Source: a virus
DNA length: 64,000 nt
Direction: 5' to 3' (one strand)
Virus genome (UHGV): UHGV-0033085
The notes beneath the pieces are model-generated. The model saw only the letters and a program-made list of their open reading frames with translations. It did not search any database and had not been told where the DNA came from. Each line of letters begins with the position of its first letter. Positions within the stretch are counted from its first letter, which is position 1. This document shows, piece by piece, positions 25,404-58,683 of this stretch. The position numbers and the translations under genes were made by a program.

Positions 25404-28400
25404 ATGTGGTACAGGGAAGGTACTATCACATTTACACAGGGCAGCAATACTCTGGTTGGGGCAGGGACAGCCTGGAACGTAACAGCTAATGGTGTGTTGC
25501 CGGGGATGATCGTCATTGGCCCCGACAACAAGCTGTATGAGATCAAGCGCGTAACCAGTGATACGAACATTGTTCTCTCAGAACCTTATACCGGCGAAAC
25601 TCAGTCTGAAGTTCCGTGCCGAATCATTACGACCTATGAAGGCGACTTAACACAGTTTAGCGCGCGCTTTACTGCACTAATGTCGCGTATGTCGGCTGAT
25701 TCAAAGTCCATGCGCAGTTGGTTGACTGCTCTGGATGAGGTGACAATCGAGCGTGAAGACGGTACAGAAGTGACCGTTAAGCCGCTAATGCAGATCGTCA
25801 ACGAGCACAACGAAAACGTTGAGTGGTATAAAAATAACACTGACGCGATTAATGCTGCTGGCGACAAAGCTCGTGAGGCGGCGGCCAGTGCTGCCGCAGC
25901 AGCCGAAAGCGCCAATACCGCTGGAGAAAAAGCCTCTCAAGCGTCTCAAAGTGCATCCGCTGCGGCATCTTCACAAAGTGCTGCAAGTGCGAGTGCAACT
26001 GCTGCGAAAAAATCTGAAACGAACGCAGAATCAGCACATCTAGCGGCAGCAGAATCAGCGTCTGTAGCGTCGACCAAAGCATCGGAGGCAGCAACATCTG
26101 CGTCCAGTGCCTCTGCATCTAAGGATGCAGCCAAAGCATCAGAGACTAACGCTTCATCGAGTGCAAACGCGGCTGCATCATTTGCAACAGAAGCTGAAAA
26201 TTCGTCTAAGGCAGCAAAAGCGTCAGAGACAAACGCAAAAGCATCTGAAACGGCAGCCGGGCAGAGTGCATCGTCTGCAAACAGTTCGAAATCTGCGGCA
26301 GAAGCGTCAGCAAGCGCAGCCTCAGCAAGTGCGGATAGTGCTTCATCAAGTGCAACTGCGGCAGGAAAATCTGCGGATAGTGCATCGTCATCAGCGACAA
26401 TAGCTACCACAAAAGCGACAGAGGCGACAAGTCAGGCTACAGCTGCTAAAAATTCAGCATCGGCAGCAAAAACCTCTGAAACAAATGCAAAGGTCTCAGA
26501 AGACAATGCGGCTTCCTCTAAGGCGGCAGCTGCTGAATCTGCAAGTTCTGCGTCTGCATCAGCCACCTCAGCATCCGCTTCAAAAGATGAGGCGACCAAG
26601 CAGGCATCAGCAGCGAAGGGTAGTGCTTCAACGGCATCCACGAAAGCAACAGAGGCGGCAGGTAGTGCGACGGCTGCATCTCAGAGCAAAGCTGCTGCTG
26701 AATCCGCTGCGACCCGTGCAGAAGCTGCCGCTGATCGTGCTGAAGAGATCGCCGGTGCAGTTGCGATGGAAGACGCAAGCCTTACCACCAAAGGTGTTGT
26801 GAAACTTAGCAGTGCTGTCGATAGCACCAGTGAATCGCTGGCCGCAACGCCAAAGGCAGTTAAAGCAGTCAATGACAATGCGAACAGCAGGGTGCCATCT
26901 AACCGAAAAATTAACGGGAAAGCACTGACTGCGGATATCACATTAACGCCGAAAGATATTGGTACTTTAAATTCAATAACGATGTCTTTCTCTGGCGGGG
27001 CCGGGTGGTTCAAACTGGCTACTGTTACAATGCCACAAGCGAGTTCCATCGTTTACATCGCATTGATTGGTGGCGCTGGTTACAACGTCGGCTCCCCACA
27101 TCAGGCAGGCATTTCAGAACTGGTTCTACGAGCAGGCAATGGAAACCCCAAAGGGATTACAGGTGCTTTGTGGAAGCGTACAGCTGTCGGATTAACGAAT
27201 TTCGCCTGGATCAACACATCCGGCGATACATATGATATTTACGTTGAAATTGGCAATTATGCGACGAGTGTAAATATCCATTGGGATTGTACTGCAGATG
27301 CGTCAGTTTCTATTTATACATCGCCAACATATTCAGCGAGTAAGCCTTCCAGCGTTACCGATGGTGTTGTTTATACGATGTATAGCACACATCAGAAACC
27401 TACACCATCAGATATTGGAGCACTGCCAACAACCGGAGGAACAGTTTCAGGTCCGTTGTCTGTTACAGGTGGATTAACTGGTTCATTGAATGGTAATGCA
27501 AGTACAGCCACGAAATTGCAGACGGCAAGATCTATCGGTGGAGTTGTTTTCGACGGTTCTGCAAATATTAACCTTCCAGGTGTAAACACTACGGGTAATC
27601 AGAACACTACTGGTAATGCTGCAACTGCTACAAAACTTCAGACTGCAAGAAAAATATCCGGTGTTCCATTTGATGGTTCTACTGATATCACTTTAACCGC
27701 TGCGCATGTTGCCGCTTTCGCAAGAAGGGCAACAGGGTCATATGCGGATGCTGATGGTGGCGTTCCCTGGAATGCCGAATCAGGCGCTTACAATGTCACC
27801 AGCTCTGGCGAAAGCTATATTCTGGTTAACTTCTATACCGGAGTCGGAAGTTGCCGCACCCTGCAGATGAAGGCACATTACAGAAATAGAGGTCTGTTCT
27901 ACCGTTCTTCAAGAGACGGTTATGGTTTTGAAAGTGGTTGGGAGCAGGTTTACACGACTGGATTTATGCCTCAGCCGGCTGATATAAACGCACCAACCGC
28001 TGCCGCTGGATGGTTAAATAGTGGTAACGGAACGGCATTTACGACTGCTCAATTTATAACTTGGCTAAATAATCAGGGGGCATTTACAAACAAACATTGG
28101 ATCGCACGGTGCTCATGGACTTACGCCAACAATAATTATATAGACGACACTGGTTGCGGTAGGATCGATCTATCTGGTTCCGTGATTGAGGTGTTTAGTA
28201 ATAAGGCAACAAGCCACTACACTATTCGTGTTACAACGACAACAACATCAGGTCATGGTGGTGTTAATAATGCGGAATTTATTTATGTGTACAATGGGAG
28301 TGATTATGCGCCAGGCTGGCGTCGTTCTTATAACACTAGAAACAAACCAACAGCTTCTGATGTAGGAGCATTACCGCTTTCAGGTGGCACATTATCTGGA

Positions 28401-29303
28401 GGGTTGACGTCTTCTGGTGAGATCGTTTCAAAATATGCAAATGGTTTCCGCATTGCTTACGGTAACTATGGGTTCTTTATCCGTAATGACGGCGGAAGCA
28501 CATATTTCATGCTAACAGCATCAGGAGACACATTAGGTTCATGGAACGGTTTGCGACCTATTACAATTAATAATACCAGCGGTGCTGTATCAATTGGTAA
28601 TGGACTAAATGTTACTGGTGGCGTAAATGGTAGTTTGAACGGTAATGCTTCAACAGCCACAAAATTGCAGACAGCAAGGAAAATTGCTGGTGTGGCGTTT
28701 GATGGCTCTGCCGATATTACTTTGACTGCGGCTAACCTTAATGCTTATACGAAAACAGAGGTAACAAACCTTCTAAGTTCCTATGCAAGCAGATCATCAC
28801 TGACAGGCTATAGTGGCAACCTGGATATTATTGCTGAAACACTGGTTGTCAAATCAGGCGGTAGTGGAGGGTTTGCTATATGGGATATTGGCACAACTAC
28901 TAGCGGTGCCAATATGTACATTGATCCAAACCCAGGTATCAATACAGTTTGGCGTTCAACATCTTCAAGGCGCTATAAAAAGGAAATTGAAACATTACAA
29001 GATCGATATGCTGATGAACTTTTGTCATTAAGACCTGTTTGGTATCGTTCAATTTGTCGAGGTGACCGAAAGGATTGGGGGTATTACGGCCTTATTGCTG
29101 AAGAGGTTGGTGAGATTGCCCCGCAATATGTCCATTGGCGTGAACCAACAAATAATGATTCTCCAGAAGATATTTCCTCAAATGGTATGGTCGCTGAAGG
29201 GGTGATGTATGAGCGTTTGGTTGTACCACTCATTCATCATATTCAGCAATTGACCAAAAGGGTTGAGGAGCTTGAAACGAAGTTAAATTCACCTAAAGAA
29301 TAA
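25404..29303 (+). CDS. long tail fibre protein with C-terminal intramolecular chaperone (S74-like) domain
   Basis: Ala/Ser-rich low-complexity shaft; three copies of NGNASTATKLQTAR-type motif; C-terminal YGLIAEEV...P auto-chaperone-like block. Confidence 0.75.
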   Translation: MWYREGTITFTQGSNTLVGAGTAWNVTANGVLPGMIVIGPDNKLYEIKRVTSDTNIVLSEPYTGETQSEVPCRIITTYEGDLTQFSARFTALMSRMSADSKSMRSWLTALDEVTIEREDGTEVTVKPLMQIVNEHNENVEWYKNNTDAINAAGDKAREAAASAAAAAESANTAGEKASQASQSASAAASSQSAASASATAAKKSETNAESAHLAAAESASVASTKASEAATSASSASASKDAAKASETNASSSANAAASFATEAENSSKAAKASETNAKASETAAGQSASSANSSKSAAEASASAASASADSASSSATAAGKSADSASSSATIATTKATEATSQATAAKNSASAAKTSETNAKVSEDNAASSKAAAAESASSASASATSASASKDEATKQASAAKGSASTASTKATEAAGSATAASQSKAAAESAATRAEAAADRAEEIAGAVAMEDASLTTKGVVKLSSAVDSTSESLAATPKAVKAVNDNANSRVPSNRKINGKALTADITLTPKDIGTLNSITMSFSGGAGWFKLATVTMPQASSIVYIALIGGAGYNVGSPHQAGISELVLRAGNGNPKGITGALWKRTAVGLTNFAWINTSGDTYDIYVEIGNYATSVNIHWDCTADASVSIYTSPTYSASKPSSVTDGVVYTMYSTHQKPTPSDIGALPTTGGTVSGPLSVTGGLTGSLNGNASTATKLQTARSIGGVVFDGSANINLPGVNTTGNQNTTGNAATATKLQTARKISGVPFDGSTDITLTAAHVAAFARRATGSYADADGGVPWNAESGAYNVTSSGESYILVNFYTGVGSCRTLQMKAHYRNRGLFYRSSRDGYGFESGWEQVYTTGFMPQPADINAPTAAAGWLNSGNGTAFTTAQFITWLNNQGAFTNKHWIARCSWTYANNNYIDDTGCGRIDLSGSVIEVFSNKATSHYTIRVTTTTTSGHGGVNNAEFIYVYNGSDYAPGWRRSYNTRNKPTASDVGALPLSGGTLSGGLTSSGEIVSKYANGFRIAYGNYGFFIRNDGGSTYFMLTASGDTLGSWNGLRPITINNTSGAVSIGNGLNVTGGVNGSLNGNASTATKLQTARKIAGVAFDGSADITLTAANLNAYTKTEVTNLLSSYASRSSLTGYSGNLDIIAETLVVKSGGSGGFAIWDIGTTTSGANMYIDPNPGINTVWRSTSSRRYKKEIETLQDRYADELLSLRPVWYRSICRGDRKDWGYYGLIAEEVGEIAPQYVHWREPTNNDSPEDISSNGMVAEGVMYERLVVPLIHHIQQLTKRVEELETKLNSPKE

Positions 29304-29618: not shown

Positions 29619-29920
29619 TGTACGGAAGCAAGATATATCGATCTGACGGGAAGGTCTGGATGTCTCCTTCTTTGTCTCCTATCGTTTTTCAGAGAAAGCA
29701 GGTTGTTTCTTTGTCTGGCGGGACAGAGTTTAACACCCAAATATCTCCAGATCGTTCACCGATGATTTTTGTTGCCTATTCGAAAGCTGTTTCATTAATA
29801 GCCAACAGAATAGTGCGTAACAACCAGGTGATTTACAGTTTCGGAGGTCAGGGTAGCGACTCTAGTGCCACGATATACGTATTTTCGAAAGGTATAGCCA
29901 AAAAGAAACTTGGGGCATGA
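29618..29920 (+). CDS. hypothetical protein (tail fibre-associated cluster)
   Basis: 100-aa ORF, translationally coupled. Confidence 0.35.
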   Translation: MYGSKIYRSDGKVWMSPSLSPIVFQRKQVVSLSGGTEFNTQISPDRSPMIFVAYSKAVSLIANRIVRNNQVIYSFGGQGSDSSATIYVFSKGIAKKKLGA

Positions 29921-30225
29921 GTTTTTTCAATGCGCGAGGAGAGGAGATCTATAATACGGCAAATATCCCACTTTCATTTACCTTTCTTAATAATACGGAG
30001 TGGAACAGTTCTGGAGGGCATGTTTTTGATTACCCGCCAGCGATAATCCCAACATATGCAAATGTGTTCGCGGTTCCAGTACCGGGCGGGGCCATGACAA
30101 TGGTTTATGGATATGCGGCATATGGAAATACTGTTAGTTCCATATTCGTAAACCAACTTAATGGCGGCCATAGTTTTAGCGTAAATGGCAGAGTACCGGT
30201 AATAAATAGAAATCTGTATAACTGA
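29917..30225 (+). CDS. hypothetical protein (tail fibre-associated cluster)
   Basis: 102-aa ORF, ATGA-coupled. Confidence 0.35.
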   Translation: MSFFNARGEEIYNTANIPLSFTFLNNTEWNSSGGHVFDYPPAIIPTYANVFAVPVPGGAMTMVYGYAAYGNTVSSIFVNQLNGGHSFSVNGRVPVINRNLYN

Positions 30226-41866: not shown

Positions 41867-42153
41867 GCAATTTAACTTCTTGGGAATGGTGGTTGGCCAC
41901 CTATTTCTTAGCGGCCGGAGTCGCATTCGCCTTTTACGTAGGTCAGTTAGTCGTAAAACTGTTGCTGATTAAATTTGCTAGTCATAAACGTATCGATGAT
42001 GGTCTGTGGCGTCTTGGCACCCTGGTGGAAACTCGCTACGGGCAACTTAAGGAGAACGAAACCATTACTATCCAAGCGAAACGATTCACTGCCACCATTA
42101 CAAGAACACCTAGTCGTAGAGTGGCCTTGATCAAAAAAGTCACAACCGAATAA
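41863..42153 (+). CDS. hypothetical membrane protein
   Basis: 96-aa ORF, N-terminal TM segment. Confidence 0.35.
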   Translation: MSNLTSWEWWLATYFLAAGVAFAFYVGQLVVKLLLIKFASHKRIDDGLWRLGTLVETRYGQLKENETITIQAKRFTATITRTPSRRVALIKKVTTE

Positions 42154-42163
42154 AAACATATTG

Positions 42164-42185
42164 ATAAGTATTTACTTACTTATCT
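42164..42185. promoter_or_regulatory. palindromic motif GATAAGTATTTACTTACTTATC (dispersed motif family)
   Basis: Arms GATAAGTA / TACTTATC at start of tRNA/noncoding island. Confidence 0.4.
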
Positions 42186-42931
42186 TTTGTGTATAAGATG
42201 ACTTTGTTTTCGTTGAGACGCGACTGTTTGAACTTAAATACAAGTGCAAACGAAGAAGTCTATCTGGCAGTAGCCTAATAAGCCAAACACCAGCGAGGTC
42301 AGTTTCCAGCCTCGTTACCGAAATGGGACACACTGAGCGAGTGTGATTGCAGAACGCAGGAGGGAACATTCATGTTCCCTCCGATGAAGTAACAGAATGG
42401 GCGGTTGGTATATTTTCAACTCCATATGACTCCCGGATTCTTAGCCACTGACCGCCCATCCTGTTACGTCATTTTGTTCAATTATGTCGTTTATACTGGG
42501 TTAAAAAGCGGCGACGTAGCCCGGCTGGTATGGTTAGCCAGCACACAACGTTGAGGCCATTACATTTTTATCAATTCTAAGGTTCTATTCACAGAGATAC
42601 CGGCGAGCGTTGATATGTAACATGTTGGGCAAACATTCAATCGGAGTAGTGGCCTCAACGTTGTGAAGACAGGATTGTTGTGTAGGTTTAACCACTGTTG
42701 CCATTGGTGCCTGTTTTCACAACAAATGATTCCATACATCACATTGTATAAATTACAAAGTAGGTGCTGTCCTCAGAAACATCATCTACTTAAAGATTTT
42801 GCCTTCTACTATTGAGCGAAGTCGAAAGCGTCTGGCACTAACGAAAAGTGCAAGTAGCGGTGCGTTTCCTGGCAGAAACTAAACCGTCGCGATTGGCACT
42901 GTTGAGTAATAAATACTGGCAGTGCTGAATT

Positions 42932-43006
42932 GATGGTGTAGCTCAGCGGTAGAGCAGTTGGCTGTTAACCAACTGGTCGGTGGTTCGAATCCACCCACCA
43001 TCGCCA
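42932..43006 (+). tRNA. tRNA-Asn (anticodon GTT)
   Basis: Cloverleaf by hand: acceptor GATGGTG/CACCATC, anticodon loop CTGTTAA, T-loop GGTTCGAATCC, encoded CCA. Confidence 0.8.
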
Positions 43007-43011
43007 ATTTA

Positions 43012-43098
43012 GGGGAGTTAGTCCGTAGAGGTAGCGGTGTAGACTGTAAATCTACTGTCATGGCGACTCGGGTGGTTCGACTCCATCACTCCCCACCA
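43012..43098 (+). tRNA. tRNA-Tyr (anticodon GTA), long variable arm
   Basis: Acceptor GGGGAGT/ACTCCCC, anticodon arm GTAGA-CTGTAAA-TCTAC, T-loop GGTTCGACTCC, CCA. Confidence 0.75.
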
Positions 43099-43102
43099 AA
43101 TT

Positions 43103-43178
43103 GCCGGTTTAGCTCAGTTGGTAGAGCGCCTGCCTTGTAAGCAGGATGTCAGCGGTTCGAGTCCGTTAACCGGCACCA
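43103..43178 (+). tRNA. tRNA-Thr (anticodon TGT)
   Basis: Acceptor GCCGGTT/AACCGGC, anticodon arm CCTGC-CTTGTAA-GCAGG, T-loop GGTTCGAGTCC, CCA. Confidence 0.8.
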
Positions 43179-43541
43179 ACACAACAGGTAAGTGCATTGG
43201 GCGAATCGGCGATACTGACCCACAAGCCCGTAAATCGATAGAGTCAGACCAGTGCTCTTACCGTTGTGAGGAAGTGCAGCTCTTTGAGGCAACCAGAAGA
43301 TAAGCATCTGGCTTCACAACACAACGATAAGATCATTACGGTTAATCGTCGTTCATGTGCACAATGACTGGTCGAAAGGTAGTGATCTTACCGTTGTGGT
43401 GGATTCGCAGACTGATGCGATAGCTTTCTTGGATGTTAGGGAAATGCGGCCGCAAATCTTCCCTTTCGCGAGCGGTGATCGTCCGTAGTCCTAATTGGCT
43501 GCACCGTATGCCGGAGATTCAGTACCGGCCACCACAACGGC

Positions 43542-43628
43542 CGGAGAGTAGGGAGCATGGTGCTCAAGCGGTCTTGAAAACCGTCCCATTGCGCAAGCGA
43601 TGATGGTTCGATTCCATTACTCTCCGCC
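43542..43628 (+). tRNA. tRNA-Ser (anticodon TGA), long variable arm
   Basis: Acceptor GGAGAGT/ACTCTCC, anticodon arm GCGGT-CTTGAAA-ACCGT, T-loop GGTTCGATTCC, CCA. Confidence 0.7.
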
Positions 43629-43851
43629 AGACACAGCGTTGAGCGGTTTGGCCTTTTAATCACCCAGATTAAGACTCCGCTAACATAAACCAGACCGCTC
43701 AACGCTGTGATAGACAATTACGGCAGACGTTCTTAACCATAGCTTGCTAACATCCTAGCAACACTTTTTTTCAGCGCAAAATTCAAAGGGGCTTCGGCCA
43801 CTTTTTTTGCAACTGAAAGAGTCAAGTCTACGAACTTTGTAGGAAGAAATA

Positions 43852-44202
43852 ATGACCAGCAAAGAGAACACACCACTAAAAGTCACCCCTGAACACATTG
43901 AACAACTCATTCAAAGTGAACATTATTTCACTGCATATGATGCCAGCCACGGGGATAACTTCATCTCTGTTTACAATTCAAAAACAGATATCGACAAAGG
44001 TCATGAGTCGTTAAAACTCTTAACGTTCTGCGTTATGGTTCTCAAAAATGGATATACCGTAACGGGAAAATCTGCGTGCGTAAGACCAGAAATCTTCAAT
44101 TTTGATGTTGGTCGCGAGTACGCTCGAAAAGATGCTATCGATCAAATCTGGCCCCTGGAAGGCTATCTCCTGAAGCAAAAGTGGCATGAGGCAAAGCAAT
44201 GA
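43852..44202 (+). CDS. hypothetical protein
   Basis: 116-aa ORF, ATGA-coupled to downstream glutaredoxin-like frame. Confidence 0.4.
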   Translation: MTSKENTPLKVTPEHIEQLIQSEHYFTAYDASHGDNFISVYNSKTDIDKGHESLKLLTFCVMVLKNGYTVTGKSACVRPEIFNFDVGREYARKDAIDQIWPLEGYLLKQKWHEAKQ

Positions 44203-44444
44203 CGATCACTATCTACGGATGAGATAACTGCTCATACTGCAAACGTGCGGTCGAGCTGGCGAAGCAACTAAAGGGACATGGCTACGGTGATTATGAGTAC
44301 ATCGACATCACCACTGCCGGTATCAACAAGGAAAAACTAAGTGAAATTGTTGGTAAACCGGTAGAGACTATCCCCCAAGTGCTGATCGATGGCCAACCGA
44401 TTGGCGGATACACAGAACTGGCTGCATACGTCAGCACCCTCTGA
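44199..44444 (+). pseudogene. glutaredoxin-like gene (T4 NrdC-type CxxC) with in-frame TGA at codon 8
   Basis: Frame reads MTITIYG-TGA-DNCSYCKRAVELAK...IDGQPIGGYTELAAY; TGA at 44220-44222; no ATG downstream. Confidence 0.5.
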
Positions 44445-44448
44445 TTTT

Positions 44449-44475
44449 AACGGCTCACAGGAGCCGTTTTTATTC
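44449..44475 (+). terminator. rho-independent terminator
   Basis: CGGCTC-ACAG-GAGCCG followed by TTTTTATT. Confidence 0.6.
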
Positions 44476-44524
44476 CCACCAAACTCACTCCCGTTTCCCT
44501 TAAAATTCAAAAAACAACGTCAAA

Positions 44525-44555
44525 ATGATTCCATACCTACTATGTATGGAATCAT
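44525..44555. other. 31-bp perfect inverted-repeat site (12-7-12), candidate recombinase target
   Basis: ATGATTCCATAC-CTACTAT-GTATGGAATCAT, 100 bp upstream of tyrosine recombinase gene. Confidence 0.45.
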
Positions 44556-44654
44556 TACTGAAAATGAGTTACTTTTACTCTTGATCCTATAAGAATCTAT
44601 GCCTAATATACTGTTTACTTATACAGTGCATCGGCGTAACTCGGTGATTGTCAT

Positions 44655-45758
44655 ATGAAAAATAGCTTTGACAGAGCACGCGCTGCGGAGAACACCTCAA
44701 AAGAGGCGATTGAGTATCTCGAAAGAGCATCTCAAATGCAGGCCGTTATGATCTCCCAGGTCAGCAATGACATGAGATTCTCGGACGCATTCATGTTATT
44801 CACTCGCTTATCTCTGCTGATAACAAGACGTCGGCCAGAGATCGCTGTTCATTGTATTTTGATACATGTTTTGCCGCACATTGCCGATGTAAAAGTAAGT
44901 GACATTAATAGGTTCATGGTGAACCAACTGGTCAACCCACTAATACTGGATGGCAAAATTGTTATGGGCCGCCGCGTTTTCTCTCTGATGAAGCAGTTCC
45001 TTAGCTGGTGCGCCTTCCAGGGGATGATAGACGTGTCACCGTTAAACGATATGTCACTTAACAAAGTTGCCGGTGGCGCAAAGCCCACACCTCGCGAGCG
45101 GAAGCTGACCGACGCAGAGGTATGGGTGTTCTGGAATATATGGGACTACTTCAATGTGTGCGCTGGTACAAAATGGGCGGCCAGGCTGTGTCTTGTATCC
45201 GCAAGACGACCTGACGAAGTACTGCGTGCTAAAAAAAGTGAGTTCAATCTTAAGCGTGGGGTTTGGAATCAAGGCAAGAGGAACAAATCTGCCCGTGAGC
45301 ATTCGCTGCCTTTAAGCACATTAATGCGCACATGTATTGAAGAGTTGTTCGAATACGGTAAAGGCAGCCAGTGGCTCGTGCCTTCGAATAAAAAAATCGG
45401 GAAAGACCTTCCTATGTCTAAAGTGGCAATAGCCCAGGCATTACGTCGTATTCTGGAACGACCAGAACTGATGGAGCTTGAGCCATTTACACCCCGAGAC
45501 TTGCGCCGTACTGCGCGTAGTTACTTCCCAGCATTAGACATAAGCCAGGAGGTATCACGCAAAATCATGAACCACAGTCTTGAGGGGATAGATCGAGTCT
45601 ACGACCGGCACGATTATATGGACGAGATGCGAGACGCCTTAGAAAGTTTCTCGACGTACATCGCATCAATCGTAGAGCAACCGGATTTAGACGAAATTGA
45701 CCACAAATTCAAGGGAGATCGTCTATCAACAGAGCTTATTCGTGTAAATTTTTCATAG
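44655..45758 (+). CDS. tyrosine site-specific recombinase (integrase/resolvase family)
   Basis: C-terminal catalytic pattern: R in LRRTARSY, H in MNHS, Y in RVYDRHDY. Confidence 0.75.
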   Translation: MKNSFDRARAAENTSKEAIEYLERASQMQAVMISQVSNDMRFSDAFMLFTRLSLLITRRRPEIAVHCILIHVLPHIADVKVSDINRFMVNQLVNPLILDGKIVMGRRVFSLMKQFLSWCAFQGMIDVSPLNDMSLNKVAGGAKPTPRERKLTDAEVWVFWNIWDYFNVCAGTKWAARLCLVSARRPDEVLRAKKSEFNLKRGVWNQGKRNKSAREHSLPLSTLMRTCIEELFEYGKGSQWLVPSNKKIGKDLPMSKVAIAQALRRILERPELMELEPFTPRDLRRTARSYFPALDISQEVSRKIMNHSLEGIDRVYDRHDYMDEMRDALESFSTYIASIVEQPDLDEIDHKFKGDRLSTELIRVNFS

Positions 45759-50320: not shown

Positions 50321-52684
50321 ATGAAGGCACTGATGGTTCGAACTGACTTCTCACTTGGGGAGTCGGCTCTAAAAGCAGAAAACGCGGTGAAGATTGCCAG
50401 AGAAGCTGGCTACACCGCTGTAATTTCAGCAGATAGCATGAATATTGCGAGCGTTATTCCACTACAACGTGCCGCTGGTGACGACATGGCGGTTATTTGT
50501 GGTGTGAAACTAAACATTGTTGATGATCCCACATACGAGCACCGGGCTAAACTTGCTAAAGAATCTATGAGATGTATGGAATCATTAGAGCGAGGACGTA
50601 ACTACTCGTTTACCGCTCTAATTAAAAATGAGAAAGGATATCGCGACATCTGCGAACTAATGACGGCGGCCAACACACGAGAACAGTTCTACTTTGTACC
50701 GCGTCTCTCGCTCGAACAGTTGGTTTCTACATATGCCAAAGGCAACATCATCCTGCTTACTTCCGACATCGGTAGCGTGTTCCAACGCAACGATTTTGCA
50801 AAAATCATAAGCACACTGATTACAGCGGGTGGAAAAGACAACTTCTATAGTGTGGTTTATCCGCACCCTACCCCATTCTACGACCAGATTAACGTCCGGG
50901 CGATGAAAGTCGCCAGCGCATTGAAAATAGAGCCAGTGGCGTTCTATCCCGCTTATTACGAATCGATCGACGATGCAGACATTAAAGACATTGCGCACAT
51001 GGTTACGAACAACATCAAAATCGACCAGCCGCATCGTCTGCGTATCCCCCACCAGCGAGATAACGCCGTCAATGGTCGCCGCCATCTCCTTGAGGCGCTT
51101 AAAGCCTTCTCCGTTCGCATGGATGTGCCGGTAACAGCTGCAATGGCCTCAACAACGCAGGATACCATTATCGATGCCTGCACATGGCGCTGGCATGAAT
51201 TGCCGCCAGCACTGCCAAAGATGGCAGACGACGAGCCTGCAACGCTGATGAAACTGGCTGTTGCAGGGCTGCGTAAACGTCTTACCACAAAAGAGTTTGG
51301 CTACACACCACCTGCTTCTGAGAACAGGGTTTATGTTGAGCGGCTAAAGTACGAAATGGACACGCTGACTCGCCTGGGATTCTGTGGTTACTTCCTGATG
51401 GTGCGCGATCTGATGAATCATAGTCGTGAAACTGGCATTCCCGTTGGGCCTGGTCGTGGTTCCTCTGCCGGTTCTCTGGTGGCGTGGTGCATAGGCATAA
51501 CCAACGTCGACCCAATCCGTCACGGTCTTCTGTTTGAGCGTTTCATCAACCCTGAGCGTCTCGACTTGCCGGATGCGGACTTGGACTTCAGCCAGGCACG
51601 TCGCCATGAGGTGATCGAGTATCTGAATGAACGCTACGGCGAAGATTACGTTGCAGGCATTCCGAACTTCACCTACCTGGGCGCAGCCTCTGCACTACGT
51701 GATACCGCTCGTATTTATGGTGTGGAGTCCGCAGATATGGCGGTATCAAAAGAGCTGAAGAACGTCGAGGATGATAGCCTTCCATTGGAGGAGCTGCGCG
51801 AACAACTGGCAAGTCTCGACAAATACGCAACAAAATATCCTGATGCATTCAATGCAGCCTGCAAGTTACAAAGCCTTATGCGTGGCTTTGGTAGACATGC
51901 GGCAGGGATGATCGTAGCAGGTGTTCCTCTGACAGAACGTACACCGGTTGAACGCCGTGGTGACGCGCGTTGTATCGCATTTGACAAGCGTTACTGCGAG
52001 GCTATGGGCCTAATTAAGCTGGACGTACTCGGTCTGGCAACTCTCGATTTGCTCGATAGTGCAAAACGCTACATAAAAGAGAACACAGGTGAAGATATCA
52101 ATCTTGATGCCATTTCTCTTGAAGATCGCAAGGTGCTGGATGGTTTTGCTGCAGGGTATACACAGGGCGTATTCCAGCTTGAATCAGGCCCAATGCGCAA
52201 GCTGCTTAAAGATTTAGGTGGTGGAATTGAGCCAATGAGCTTTAAAACGGTCGTCGCTACAACTGCGCTCTTCCGACCTGGCCCGATTCAATCCGGCATG
52301 TTGGACGATTATGTGTCCGTGGCCAAAGGCTTCATGGCCCCACATTCCTTACACCCAATGCTGGACGACATCTCTCGCGACACAAACGGAGTTCTGATTT
52401 ATCAGGAACAGATCATGGCTGCTACGCGAATCTTGGCGGGGTTCTCAATGGCGGAAGCAGACTCGGTCAGGAAAGCGATCGGGAAAAAAGATATGGAGAA
52501 AATGAAATCCATTGGCGGCGACTTCATTAAGCGAGCGGAGGAAGGCTGGGTGACAGTGTCACTGGATGATGGTTCTACGAGAAAAATCCATAAAGCAGCA
52601 CGCCTACTTTGTGCTGATGGTGAGCGTCGCACTTATGCCGAAGCAATGGCAATAAATGCCGACATAACGAGCTTCGATATTTGA
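50321..52684 (+). CDS. dnaE: DNA polymerase III alpha (DnaE-type), N-terminal fragment; last about 45 codons non-homologous
   Basis: PHP-like N-terminus; core motif GPGRGSSAGSLVAWCIGITNVDP, LLFERFINPER, DADLDF; homology ends near 52546. Confidence 0.8.
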   Translation: MKALMVRTDFSLGESALKAENAVKIAREAGYTAVISADSMNIASVIPLQRAAGDDMAVICGVKLNIVDDPTYEHRAKLAKESMRCMESLERGRNYSFTALIKNEKGYRDICELMTAANTREQFYFVPRLSLEQLVSTYAKGNIILLTSDIGSVFQRNDFAKIISTLITAGGKDNFYSVVYPHPTPFYDQINVRAMKVASALKIEPVAFYPAYYESIDDADIKDIAHMVTNNIKIDQPHRLRIPHQRDNAVNGRRHLLEALKAFSVRMDVPVTAAMASTTQDTIIDACTWRWHELPPALPKMADDEPATLMKLAVAGLRKRLTTKEFGYTPPASENRVYVERLKYEMDTLTRLGFCGYFLMVRDLMNHSRETGIPVGPGRGSSAGSLVAWCIGITNVDPIRHGLLFERFINPERLDLPDADLDFSQARRHEVIEYLNERYGEDYVAGIPNFTYLGAASALRDTARIYGVESADMAVSKELKNVEDDSLPLEELREQLASLDKYATKYPDAFNAACKLQSLMRGFGRHAAGMIVAGVPLTERTPVERRGDARCIAFDKRYCEAMGLIKLDVLGLATLDLLDSAKRYIKENTGEDINLDAISLEDRKVLDGFAAGYTQGVFQLESGPMRKLLKDLGGGIEPMSFKTVVATTALFRPGPIQSGMLDDYVSVAKGFMAPHSLHPMLDDISRDTNGVLIYQEQIMAATRILAGFSMAEADSVRKAIGKKDMEKMKSIGGDFIKRAEEGWVTVSLDDGSTRKIHKAARLLCADGERRTYAEAMAINADITSFDI

Positions 52685-52732
52685 GAATTAATTTATAAGA
52701 TAAGAAAACAATTTGTTTAGTGAGTCTTAGAA

Positions 52733-53467
52733 ATGCCGAGTACGAAGTACAAAATCACAGAAGAATGGTTACGTCAGCGTTACATGGTTGACCTGATGAG
52801 AAAAGAAGACATTGCCGCCGAAGCTGGTTGCAGCAAGGCAAATATTGACCGCTTATTAGCCAAATGGGGGATCAGGCGCGGAAGCGCGCGGATCTCCGCT
52901 ACCCCAGCCTGGAATCGTGGCAAAAACAAAAATAATGACGAACGTATGAAGCGTCTCTCCGAAGCCCGGACTGGCACTGGCAACCCTATGTATGGGAAAA
53001 CCTCGTGGAATGCCGGTCTGCGTGCTGATATCGATGAGCGAGTGGCCACCGTTTCGAAAAAGCTAACCGGCAGAACAATCCGCGCGGAGACGAAGGAAAA
53101 GCTGGCGGCTGCCAAACGTGGAAAGATCGGAGAAGAAGCGAACAACTACAAAGGTGGCATCATCGTAAAAACCAACGGCTACATGATGCAGCTGGTTGGT
53201 AACAATGGCGTTTCGCAATACGAATACGTTCATCGATTGATAGCGAAAGAACGTCTCGGTCGGGAGCTACGTGACGATGAACATGTCCACCATATTAACC
53301 GCGATACGATAGATAACGCCCCTGGGAATCTTGTAGCACTTCCAGAAGACGCCCACATTCGCCTGCATAGTGAAATGCGTGAAGAGATATGGAGCTGGGA
53401 GCGCCAACGGAACTGGCTGGCCTCCAATGGGTATGAGTTCGTGAAGATTGATGAGGTGACTGCATGA
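52733..53467 (+). CDS. HNH homing endonuclease (NUMOD-like repeats + HNH)
   Basis: HNH motif HHINRDTIDNAPGNLVALPEDAHIRLH; repeated GKxxWNxG / KRLSEARTG-type motifs. Confidence 0.8.
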   Translation: MPSTKYKITEEWLRQRYMVDLMRKEDIAAEAGCSKANIDRLLAKWGIRRGSARISATPAWNRGKNKNNDERMKRLSEARTGTGNPMYGKTSWNAGLRADIDERVATVSKKLTGRTIRAETKEKLAAAKRGKIGEEANNYKGGIIVKTNGYMMQLVGNNGVSQYEYVHRLIAKERLGRELRDDEHVHHINRDTIDNAPGNLVALPEDAHIRLHSEMREEIWSWERQRNWLASNGYEFVKIDEVTA

Positions 53468-54633
53468 AAATTACCGGTGTTGTCGAAGAGAGCAATGGCC
53501 TGACGCACGAACGAGCCGAAGAAATCTGGAATATGTTTGAGAAATCCGGCGCGTATGCCTTCAACAAATCACACTCTGTTGCTTACTCCTTAATCAGTTA
53601 TCAATCTATGTGGTTGAAAACTCATTATCCCGCGGAGTTCTTCGCTGCTGCTCTCACTATTCTTGGCGAAGATAAACACCAGGGGCTGGTTAAAGATGCG
53701 CTGACCTATGGTATTCGCGTATTGCCACCAGACGTTAACGTGTCATCTAACCGAATCGAGATCCGCACGCTTGAAGATGGCAGCCAGGTGCTGTATGCGC
53801 CCTTCTCTGCTGTGAAAGGGTGTTCTGAGAATGGCTGCCAAGCCATCATGAGAGCGCGAGAAAAAGTTGGCGGCAAATTCGAGTCACTGGCGCAATTCGA
53901 AGAAGCTGTCGAGAAACGTGCCTGTAATAGTCGAGTGCGCGAATCGCTGCAAAAAGTAGGGGCGTTTGCATCCATCGAGCCAGGTAGTCTGCCAGCAACT
54001 GATCCAGAGCGCCTACGCGACCAGGCTGAATTGATGGGAAACCTTGTCATAGACGCAGTTAAAGCCTCACGTCCGTTTGAGATGAACCCCAAACGTTCGG
54101 CTGAGATTAACGTACTCATGACGCGGATGGCGGCTGAAATGGGCTTAGGTGATGAACTAATCCGCCCCAGCATTGGTATTAAGCCGAAAATCATGATCAT
54201 TCTGGACAATGCGAACGGCAATGATGCTCGAACCGGTTACTTTATGGAGAACGGATACGACGATTTTAAGGCCAAGCTGTTGACGGCTGGGGATTTGCGC
54301 ATGGGCGATCTCTATGTCACAGGCGTTTGCAAAAAGGTGAAAGACAAAGAAAAGGACTACACCAAAGACGAGATCGGCCAGTTCACCGACTTTATGCGTG
54401 AAGAGATCAATCTGGTGCGCCCGACCTATGTGCTGACGTGTGGTAGCCGGGCAACGGCATTGTTTAACAACAAAAACAAGCCATCCGATTTGGTCGGCAG
54501 GAAGGAGTATCTTCCAGACCTTGACGTTACTGTCTTTTACGGGTTTAACCCCAACATTCTTTACTTCAGACCTGAAGAGGGAGAACGACTAGAAGCGATA
54601 TTAGCCGACGTAGCAGAAACTATTAAGTCGTGA
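53464..54633 (+). CDS. dnaE: DNA polymerase III alpha (DnaE-type), C-terminal fragment
   Basis: Motif YAFNKSHSVAYSLISYQSMWLKTHYPAEFFAA; own ATG with GAGGTG upstream. Confidence 0.8.
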   Translation: MKITGVVEESNGLTHERAEEIWNMFEKSGAYAFNKSHSVAYSLISYQSMWLKTHYPAEFFAAALTILGEDKHQGLVKDALTYGIRVLPPDVNVSSNRIEIRTLEDGSQVLYAPFSAVKGCSENGCQAIMRAREKVGGKFESLAQFEEAVEKRACNSRVRESLQKVGAFASIEPGSLPATDPERLRDQAELMGNLVIDAVKASRPFEMNPKRSAEINVLMTRMAAEMGLGDELIRPSIGIKPKIMIILDNANGNDARTGYFMENGYDDFKAKLLTAGDLRMGDLYVTGVCKKVKDKEKDYTKDEIGQFTDFMREEINLVRPTYVLTCGSRATALFNNKNKPSDLVGRKEYLPDLDVTVFYGFNPNILYFRPEEGERLEAILADVAETIKS

Positions 54634-57609: not shown

Positions 57610-58683
57610 ATGGCAAAAGGAAAATCCGCACTGGCACTTGCTCTGAAAAAGAAAATCGGTAGCAACGACGAAATTCAGAAAGTAACTCATTGGATTGACA
57701 CAGGCTTTCCTCCGTTAAACAAAGCGATTTCCGGTCGTTACGATGGCGGTTTCCCATGTGGTCGTATCGTAGAAGTATTCGGGCCACCAAGCGCGGGGAA
57801 AACCTTTTTGGCAACGGCAGCAATGATCTCCGCACAGAAACAAGATGGTCTGGCGGTATTCCTCGATCATGAGAACAGTTTTGACGTTGGCCTGGCTGTA
57901 GCCAATGGTTTGAATGCAGATGAGGATGACGGTCAGTGGGTATACAAGCAGCCTGATACCTTCGAAGACTCTGTAGAGTTGATCGGCACAATTCTTAAAT
58001 TGGTACGTGATGAAGAGCTTATTCCTGAATCAGCACCTATCTGTATCGTGGCTGACTCACTTGCGTCTATGGTTCCGAACTCCAAAGCCGAGAAGTTCGA
58101 AAAGATGGCTGAAGGCACTGCCAAAGACAAAGATCAGCTAAACATGAACGACAATACGGCACTGGCTCGTGCGACAAGTGCGAACTTCCCTACTCTGGCT
58201 TTGTGGGCACGCAAATACAACGCCTGCATCATCTTCTTGAATCAGGTTCGCACAAAAATCGGTGTAATGTTTGGCGACCCTACTACGTCTCCAGGTGGAG
58301 ATTCACCGAAGTTCTACGCTTCTGTACGTATCCGTCTTGGTGCATCGGTGATGAAGGATGGTAAAGAGAAGATCGGCCAGGACGTAGGCGCAGAATGCAT
58401 CAAAAACAAAGTTGCACCACCGTATGGCAAATGCACCTGGAAATTCTACTTCGATCCTACTCGTGGCCTCGACGTTATCGAATCGCTCGTCGAGTACATG
58501 CTGGAAGAAGGATACCTGCCAAAGAACGCCAGCGGGCGAGTTGAAATTGGTGACAAGAAATACACCAAATCGCAGATCGTCGAGATGTATCGGGAGAAGC
58601 CACTGGCTGAAATCATTGCGGCTTTGCAGGCAATCGACGACCGAAGAGCAAAAGACAACCCCACCGAGTCAGTAGAAGAGTAA
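57610..58683 (+). CDS. RecA/UvsX-family recombinase
   Basis: Walker A GPPSAGKT; RecA-like core. Confidence 0.7.
   Translation: MAKGKSALALALKKKIGSNDEIQKVTHWIDTGFPPLNKAISGRYDGGFPCGRIVEVFGPPSAGKTFLATAAMISAQKQDGLAVFLDHENSFDVGLAVANGLNADEDDGQWVYKQPDTFEDSVELIGTILKLVRDEELIPESAPICIVADSLASMVPNSKAEKFEKMAEGTAKDKDQLNMNDNTALARATSANFPTLALWARKYNACIIFLNQVRTKIGVMFGDPTTSPGGDSPKFYASVRIRLGASVMKDGKEKIGQDVGAECIKNKVAPPYGKCTWKFYFDPTRGLDVIESLVEYMLEEGYLPKNASGRVEIGDKKYTKSQIVEMYREKPLAEIIAALQAIDDRRAKDNPTESVEE

Follow-up and report, generated by a model that had tools for sequence, protein, structure and literature searches.

A probable nonsense null allele of a GrxA-family glutaredoxin gene in an SSU5-like phage-plasmid of Escherichia coli

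The glutaredoxin gene (grx) carried by the 64,000-nucleotide stretch of viral DNA analysed here (UHGV-0033085; hereafter the window) has an in-frame TGA at codon 8, and this is very probably an ordinary nonsense null allele (R8*) of a GrxA-family gene, genuine and heritable, whose loss is tolerated alongside the glutaredoxins and thioredoxins of the host. As such it is a routine nonsense pseudogene, in a well-annotated accessory gene of a well-known phage-plasmid family. The grx frame comprises 81 codons plus a natural TGA stop (coordinates in Table 1), and its translation reads MTITIYG, the codon 8 stop, DNCSYCKRAVELAKQLKGHGYGDYEYIDITTAGINKEKLSEIVGKPVETIPQVLIDGQPIGGYTELAAYVSTL and the terminal stop, with the active-site motif CSYC at codons 11–14. 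The initial annotation had reported the in-frame TGA within a glutaredoxin frame, the CSYC active site and the C-terminus, all of which this translation reproduces, and it had described an ATGA coupling of the grx start codon to the upstream ORF, whose TGA stop does lie at 44200–44202. Its statement that the frame has no alternative downstream ATG also holds: past the TGA the frame contains neither ATG nor TTG, and its sole GTG is codon 61, beyond the active site; for this reason the ORF list has no entry of 30 aa or more in this frame. The upstream ORF encodes a 116 aa protein of the Phage_gp49_66 family (PF13876, E = 3.4e-29).

Table 1. Features of the window that bear on the grx locus and on the split dnaE gene.
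Feature	Position	Strand	Basis
tRNA array: Asn(GTT)-Tyr(GTA)-Thr(TGT), 365-nt spacer (43179–43542), Ser(TGA)	42932–43629	+	
Upstream Gp49/Sf6-gp66 family gene; TGA stop overlaps grx ATG (ATGA)	43852–44202	+	ORF list; Pfam PF13876
GAGG Shine-Dalgarno-like motif, 6 nt 5′ of the grx ATG	44189–44192	+	Read from sequence; putative function
grx, GrxA-family glutaredoxin, nonsense (R8*) allele, read as a pseudogene	44199–44444	+	Translation; Pfam PF00462; NF008401; 1EGO
In-frame TGA, codon 8, from CGA (Arg) via C>T at 44220	44220–44222	+	Comparison with relatives
Terminator-like hairpin AACGGCTC-ACAG-GAGCCGTT, then T-run; 5 nt past the grx stop	44449–44476	+	Terminator scan
Tyrosine recombinase/integrase	44655–45758	+	Pfam PF00589 (E = 4.9e-9); exact protein is the marker for TGA sister contigs
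dnaE N-terminal ORF, 787 aa	50321–52684	+	
ORF with HNH_3 and NUMOD3 motifs within dnaE, 244 aa	52733–53467	+	
dnaE C-terminal ORF, 389 aa	53464–54633	+	

For the profile and structure-sequence searches codon 8 was translated as Arg. The frame matches the Pfam Glutaredoxin family (PF00462) with an E-value of 1.1e-10, scores 107.7 bits against the NCBIfam model NF008401 “GrxA family glutaredoxin” (cutoff 84), and aligns with E. coli Grx1 (1EGO) with an E-value of 3.6e-21, its residues 3–79 pairing with 3–80 of that protein; with these scores it is no chance match. An older model, TIGR02183, gave 86.1 bits, under its cutoff of 106.5. By these comparisons the gene is assigned to the GrxA (E. coli Grx1) family. 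The initial annotation had called it an NrdC-type glutaredoxin, and of that name the glutaredoxin part stands and the NrdC family does not, since the NCBIfam assignment is to GrxA and T4 NrdC (1AAZ) matches with an E-value of 0.19 versus 3.6e-21 for Grx1. An NrdC-like role, as a matter of function and not of family, is plausible because relatives of the element encode their own class Ia NrdAB. The normal role of the protein would presumably be to supply electrons to the NrdAB of the element or of the host; the intact product is a putative GSH-dependent disulfide reductase and NrdAB hydrogen donor in the context of the nrdA and nrdB genes of these relatives. A functional member of the family should have an uninterrupted frame; in the window, and in six sister contigs described below, it is broken by the TGA at codon 8.

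Nucleotide identity places the window in an SSU5/pLF82 (“Cyrano”)-like phage-plasmid carried by E. coli. With Escherichia phage Cyrano (OV696614; pLF82 is NC_011917) the region shares 97.6% identity, and published work counts Cyrano/pLF82 among the SSU5-like phage-plasmids (PMC9928086). Identity is 97–99% to some 200 plasmids from E. coli, ~105–115 kb in size, the matches being to plasmids only and to no chromosomes. The grx gene of these relatives encodes an intact 81-aa dithiol (CSYC) glutaredoxin, and the intact 81-aa orthologue carries the annotation “GrxA family glutaredoxin” in hundreds of plasmids. As the nearest well-annotated reference we used p4_0.2 of E. coli 4/0 (NZ_CP023851), in which the order is tRNA-Asn/Tyr/Thr/Ser, Gp49 family gene, grx (81 aa), tyrosine recombinase, CobT-like gene, AAA ATPase gene and dnaE, and whose gp49-family protein is 100% identical to that of the window. 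The tRNA layout is the same in p4_0.2, and Cyrano is without the Tyr tRNA and the spacer.

Other differences among these elements were seen outside the grx gene. The second tail-fibre gene of the window (25404–29300, plus strand) shares only ~77% identity with its p4_0.2 counterpart, in an alignment with many gaps, where its neighbours share 96–100%, and this is a mosaic host-range region as judged from the alignment. An A-run at ~29900 (gccAAAAAgaaac) is 1 nt shorter in the window than in p4_0.2, and the shortening frameshifts a 188-aa hypothetical ORF (29660–30222, plus strand) upstream of a cor-like lipoprotein gene; this difference may reflect either a genuine second pseudogene or a miscalled homopolymer. 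The recA-like gene of the window (57610–58680, plus strand) encodes 357 aa and has no intein, and many close relatives have a 779-aa RecA with an Intein_splicing plus LAGLIDADG_3 insertion (loci L013, L018, L021–L023, L025–L027 and L029). The intergenic region between grx and the integrase gene (window 44445–44654) is an insertion hot spot among relatives and holds no insert in the window; in Cyrano it contains an additional minus-strand ORF of 555 nt (L001, 3827–4381), and another relative has a YafO-toxin-like pair (insertion loci L022, 933–1671, and L029, 720–1748).

The dnaE gene (DNA polymerase III alpha) is split in the window (50321–54633, plus strand) into the three ORFs of Table 1, and in p4_0.2 one CDS encodes all 1172 aa. 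An identical HNH protein occurs in 1654 blocks of the assembly collection, and seven of the ten contigs among the matches listed have all three ORFs called; the insertion is a polymorphism of the homing-endonuclease type that is common among these phage-plasmids. We considered it as a lineage marker and dropped it, because it is too common and because the contigs listed all have a CGA grx (intact in 10 of the 10 HNH-ORF contigs among the matches listed). A RepB look-up was likewise set aside as a guide to the nrdAB genes of this particular lineage, because none of the eight listed places has the split dnaE of the window; six have the unsplit 1172-aa dnaE and two have no dnaE within the locus. 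The RepB variant is widespread (48 blocks), and all eight RepB-anchored relatives among the matches listed carry nrdA (771 aa) and nrdB (380 aa) in intact form; the region that holds the nrdAB module in relatives lies ~5–8 kb past the window end.

The nature of the lesion follows from codon 8 of the relatives. It is CGA in Cyrano, CMS-2020a and Klebsiella phage vB_Kpn_1825-KPC53, and among all the loci fetched it is CGA in 14 of the 14 outside the lineage and TGA in seven (the window and the six sister contigs). At position 8 in 56 homologue-cluster representatives, drawn from a search of 5.8 billion proteins, Arg occurs 36 times, Lys 19 times and Leu once, and Trp and Cys are absent; in E. 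coli Grx1 the residue aligned here is Arg8. The lesion is therefore a C-to-T transition that changes CGA to TGA (R8*). The initial annotation had expected orthologues to have TGG or TGC at this codon, and the comparison returned CGA (Arg) instead; the first of the options it offered, a recent nonsense mutation and pseudogene, is the one favoured by the CGA of the relatives and by the inheritance of the TGA (below). Position 44220, T in the window and C in p4_0.2, is one of 21 substitutions over 4.5 kb, and there is only one other difference between the two within grx, 44325, which is A in the window and G in p4_0.2 and gives D43N.

Is the T at 44220 real? A 76-nt query centred on the codon had no 100% identical match among 202 plasmid records of E. 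coli or among 318 PLSDB records, the best match being 75/76, and an exact 36-mer across the TGA had no matches in GTDB genome contigs, IMG/VR viral contigs or JGI metagenome contigs. The allele was recovered solely by an exact-protein look-up of the adjacent integrase, which returned 13 contigs, and all six of those among the matches listed share this TGA together with the A at 44325 that is linked to it. These six (ENA ERZ28615229, ERZ28614141, ERZ4561630, ERZ4561613 and ERZ27286953, and Logan ERR7746101) are 99.97–100% identical to the window over 3.5–6 kb, and in all six the gene callers left the interval between the gp49-family and integrase genes empty. They come from different samples (two “MERR22-1” ENA assemblies, two Hadza gut-metagenome assemblies, Logan ERR7746101 and ERZ27286953), and their record-name formats differ (SPAdes-style NODE, k141, Logan and scaffolds). 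The same TGA in six contigs from other samples excludes a one-off consensus or assembly error, and with it the sequencing error that had been offered as a possible cause.

The reading in which the true base at 44220 is C and grx is intact is thus exceedingly unlikely. The absence of the allele from ~520 annotated plasmid records and three contig collections would be in keeping with such an error, as would the A-run difference near 29900 if that is itself a homopolymer miscall; however, the identical T is found under several assembler name formats, the change at 44220 is a substitution and no homopolymer indel, and the remainder of the window is otherwise clean (among the 49 p4_0.2 proteins compared with the window, the grx match is the only one that contains a stop codon). 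A base-calling artefact at a methylation motif was also considered and rejected, as no GATC or CCWGG overlaps 44220, and the independent assemblies make the point moot. On these comparisons the TGA allele is inherited in a young, nearly clonal sub-lineage present in several gut-metagenome assemblies. The Hadza and “MERR22” sample names suggest that related projects lie behind several of the six contigs, and the lineage may not extend beyond a single host community. All of its copies are identical across the gene and none shows decay after the mutation, so there is no decay to prove relaxed selection.

Could the UGA be decoded as an amino acid by design? Programmed recoding, in which it would specify selenocysteine or be reassigned by a phage-encoded suppressor tRNA, has almost no likelihood. 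The Ser tRNA at 43543–43629 scores 46.6 bits on the Rfam tRNA-Sec model, narrowly under the gathering score of 47, and the frame has a weak NCBIfam similarity to UXX-star selenoprotein glutaredoxins (E ~1e-4, far under cutoff). However, that tRNA owes its near score to a long variable arm, and its anticodon loop CUUGAAA gives the anticodon UGA, which decodes UCA and not UGA, so that it was rejected as a tRNA-Sec. There is no suppressor or Sec tRNA among the tRNAs of the window; an Rfam scan of 42100–44700 at E ≤ 1 gave the four tRNAs and a chance RsaH match only, and the spacer within the array has no Rfam or ARAGORN match. Folding the 71 nt that begin with the UGA gave −14.9 kcal/mol, where 200 shuffled sequences averaged −15.9 (z = +0.37; 120 of the 200 fold at least as well), and no SECIS-like structure was found 3′ of the UGA in this comparison. 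Orthologues have Arg or Lys and no Cys at this position, which is outside the CxxC motif, and TGA terminates 14 of the 41 genes of the window, including the upstream gene and grx itself. The earlier judgement that selenocysteine is unlikely agrees with both the folding and the orthologue comparison. A +1 frameshift at GGA-TGA-G was rejected too, since the glutaredoxin frame continues in frame 0 and a shift would leave it.

Accidental readthrough is the one live rival, although it is still unlikely, as nothing in the context favours it. Of the stop codons, UGA is the one most prone to readthrough in E. coli, at a low level, and near-cognate tRNA-Trp reading it at a low rate would give a little full-length Grx(R8W), making the allele hypomorphic and not null. 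The frame beyond the stop is intact and identical to functional alleles except for D43N, and the allele persists in several samples, both of which are in keeping with a leaky stop. Against it, the base after the stop is G, and TGA-G is not known as the leakiest context; the stop replaces a basic residue (R/K) that is conserved; the sequence downstream shows no stimulatory structure; and persistence is equally expected of a neutral null allele in a young clone. That the leak has been selected as a “dimmer”, with trace Grx(R8W) from readthrough and a lower glutaredoxin dosage that benefits plasmid-state carriage in the human gut, is very unlikely; if true, it would explain the presence of the lineage in several metagenomes. 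Finally, early stops can permit reinitiation in bacteria, and a ribosome restarting past the stop might make an N-terminally truncated, active protein, but we put the chance of this close to nil: no ATG, GTG or TTG lies in frame between the TGA and CSYC, and a product begun at the first available start, GTG codon 61, would lack beta-strand 1 and the active site.

The favoured reading, a plain nonsense null allele, would work as follows. In the lineage a C-to-T change at 44220 turned the Arg codon into TGA; ribosomes would initiate as usual at the coupled ATG and release the heptapeptide MTITIYG at the new stop, and no functional glutaredoxin would be made because there is no in-frame start before the active site. 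The allele should thus be null or nearly so, and its loss appears to be near-neutral. E. coli Grx1, Grx2 and Grx3 and the thioredoxins can reduce class Ia ribonucleotide reductase. The terminator-like hairpin at 44449–44468, just past grx, makes it the putative last gene of its unit, and being last before a terminator it should exert no polar effect. The loss is probably tolerated because the host has these glutaredoxins and thioredoxins and because nothing downstream of grx would be affected.

Other disruptions in these elements fit the dispensability of the gene. About ten of 57 homologue clusters are frameshifted or truncated (for example P0005, P0028, P0031, P0038 and P0056); of the independent disrupted grx alleles in public assemblies, which also include P0048, several are frameshifted at or near a C5 run (ETIP; window 44372–44376) and others are truncated, which suggests either recurrent loss of grx or recurrent homopolymer miscalls. 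In p4_0.2 (L012, 5198–8826; NZ_CP023851, 102198–105826) nrdA is split by an IS3-family transposase gene, and nrdB, thymidylate synthase and dfrA51 (DHFR) are intact; the interrupted nrdA is another case of decay in the nucleotide-metabolism module, and it too fits dispensability.

Annotators should enter the locus as a pseudogene of a GrxA-family glutaredoxin (R8*, CGA>TGA), and should neither leave it blank nor call it NrdC. The allele is one modest data point that the accessory redoxin of SSU5-like phage-plasmids can be lost in nature while the element still circulates, which fits its being redundant with the glutaredoxins and thioredoxins of the host. To follow the sub-lineage in gut metagenomes, the pair of T at 44220 and A at 44325 makes a handy marker.

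Among known systems, the closest is the grx gene of the SSU5-like elements themselves (WP_000156433.1 on p4_0.2; CYRAN_42 of Cyrano/pLF82), with which the window shares locus, synteny (tRNA array-gp49-grx-integrase) and length; the p4_0.2 gene differs in having CGA at codon 8 where the window has TGA, so that the window product would end after seven residues, and also at the D43N site. E. coli Grx1 (1EGO/1EGR/1GRX) shares Arg8, the CxYC dithiol motif and the GKPVETxPQ and IGGYT motifs with the element's grx, but its active site is CPYC and that of the element CSYC, and the element's gene is plasmid/phage-borne and, in the window, inactivated. T4 NrdC (“T4 thioredoxin”; 1AAZ/1ABA) is likewise a small phage-borne CxYC redoxin and, given the class Ia nrdA and nrdB carried by the relatives of the window, the two are alike in being likely reductants of ribonucleotide reductase; in sequence, however, the similarity is marginal (E = 0.19 for 1AAZ and 0.53 for 1ABA), which places the element's grx outside the NrdC family.
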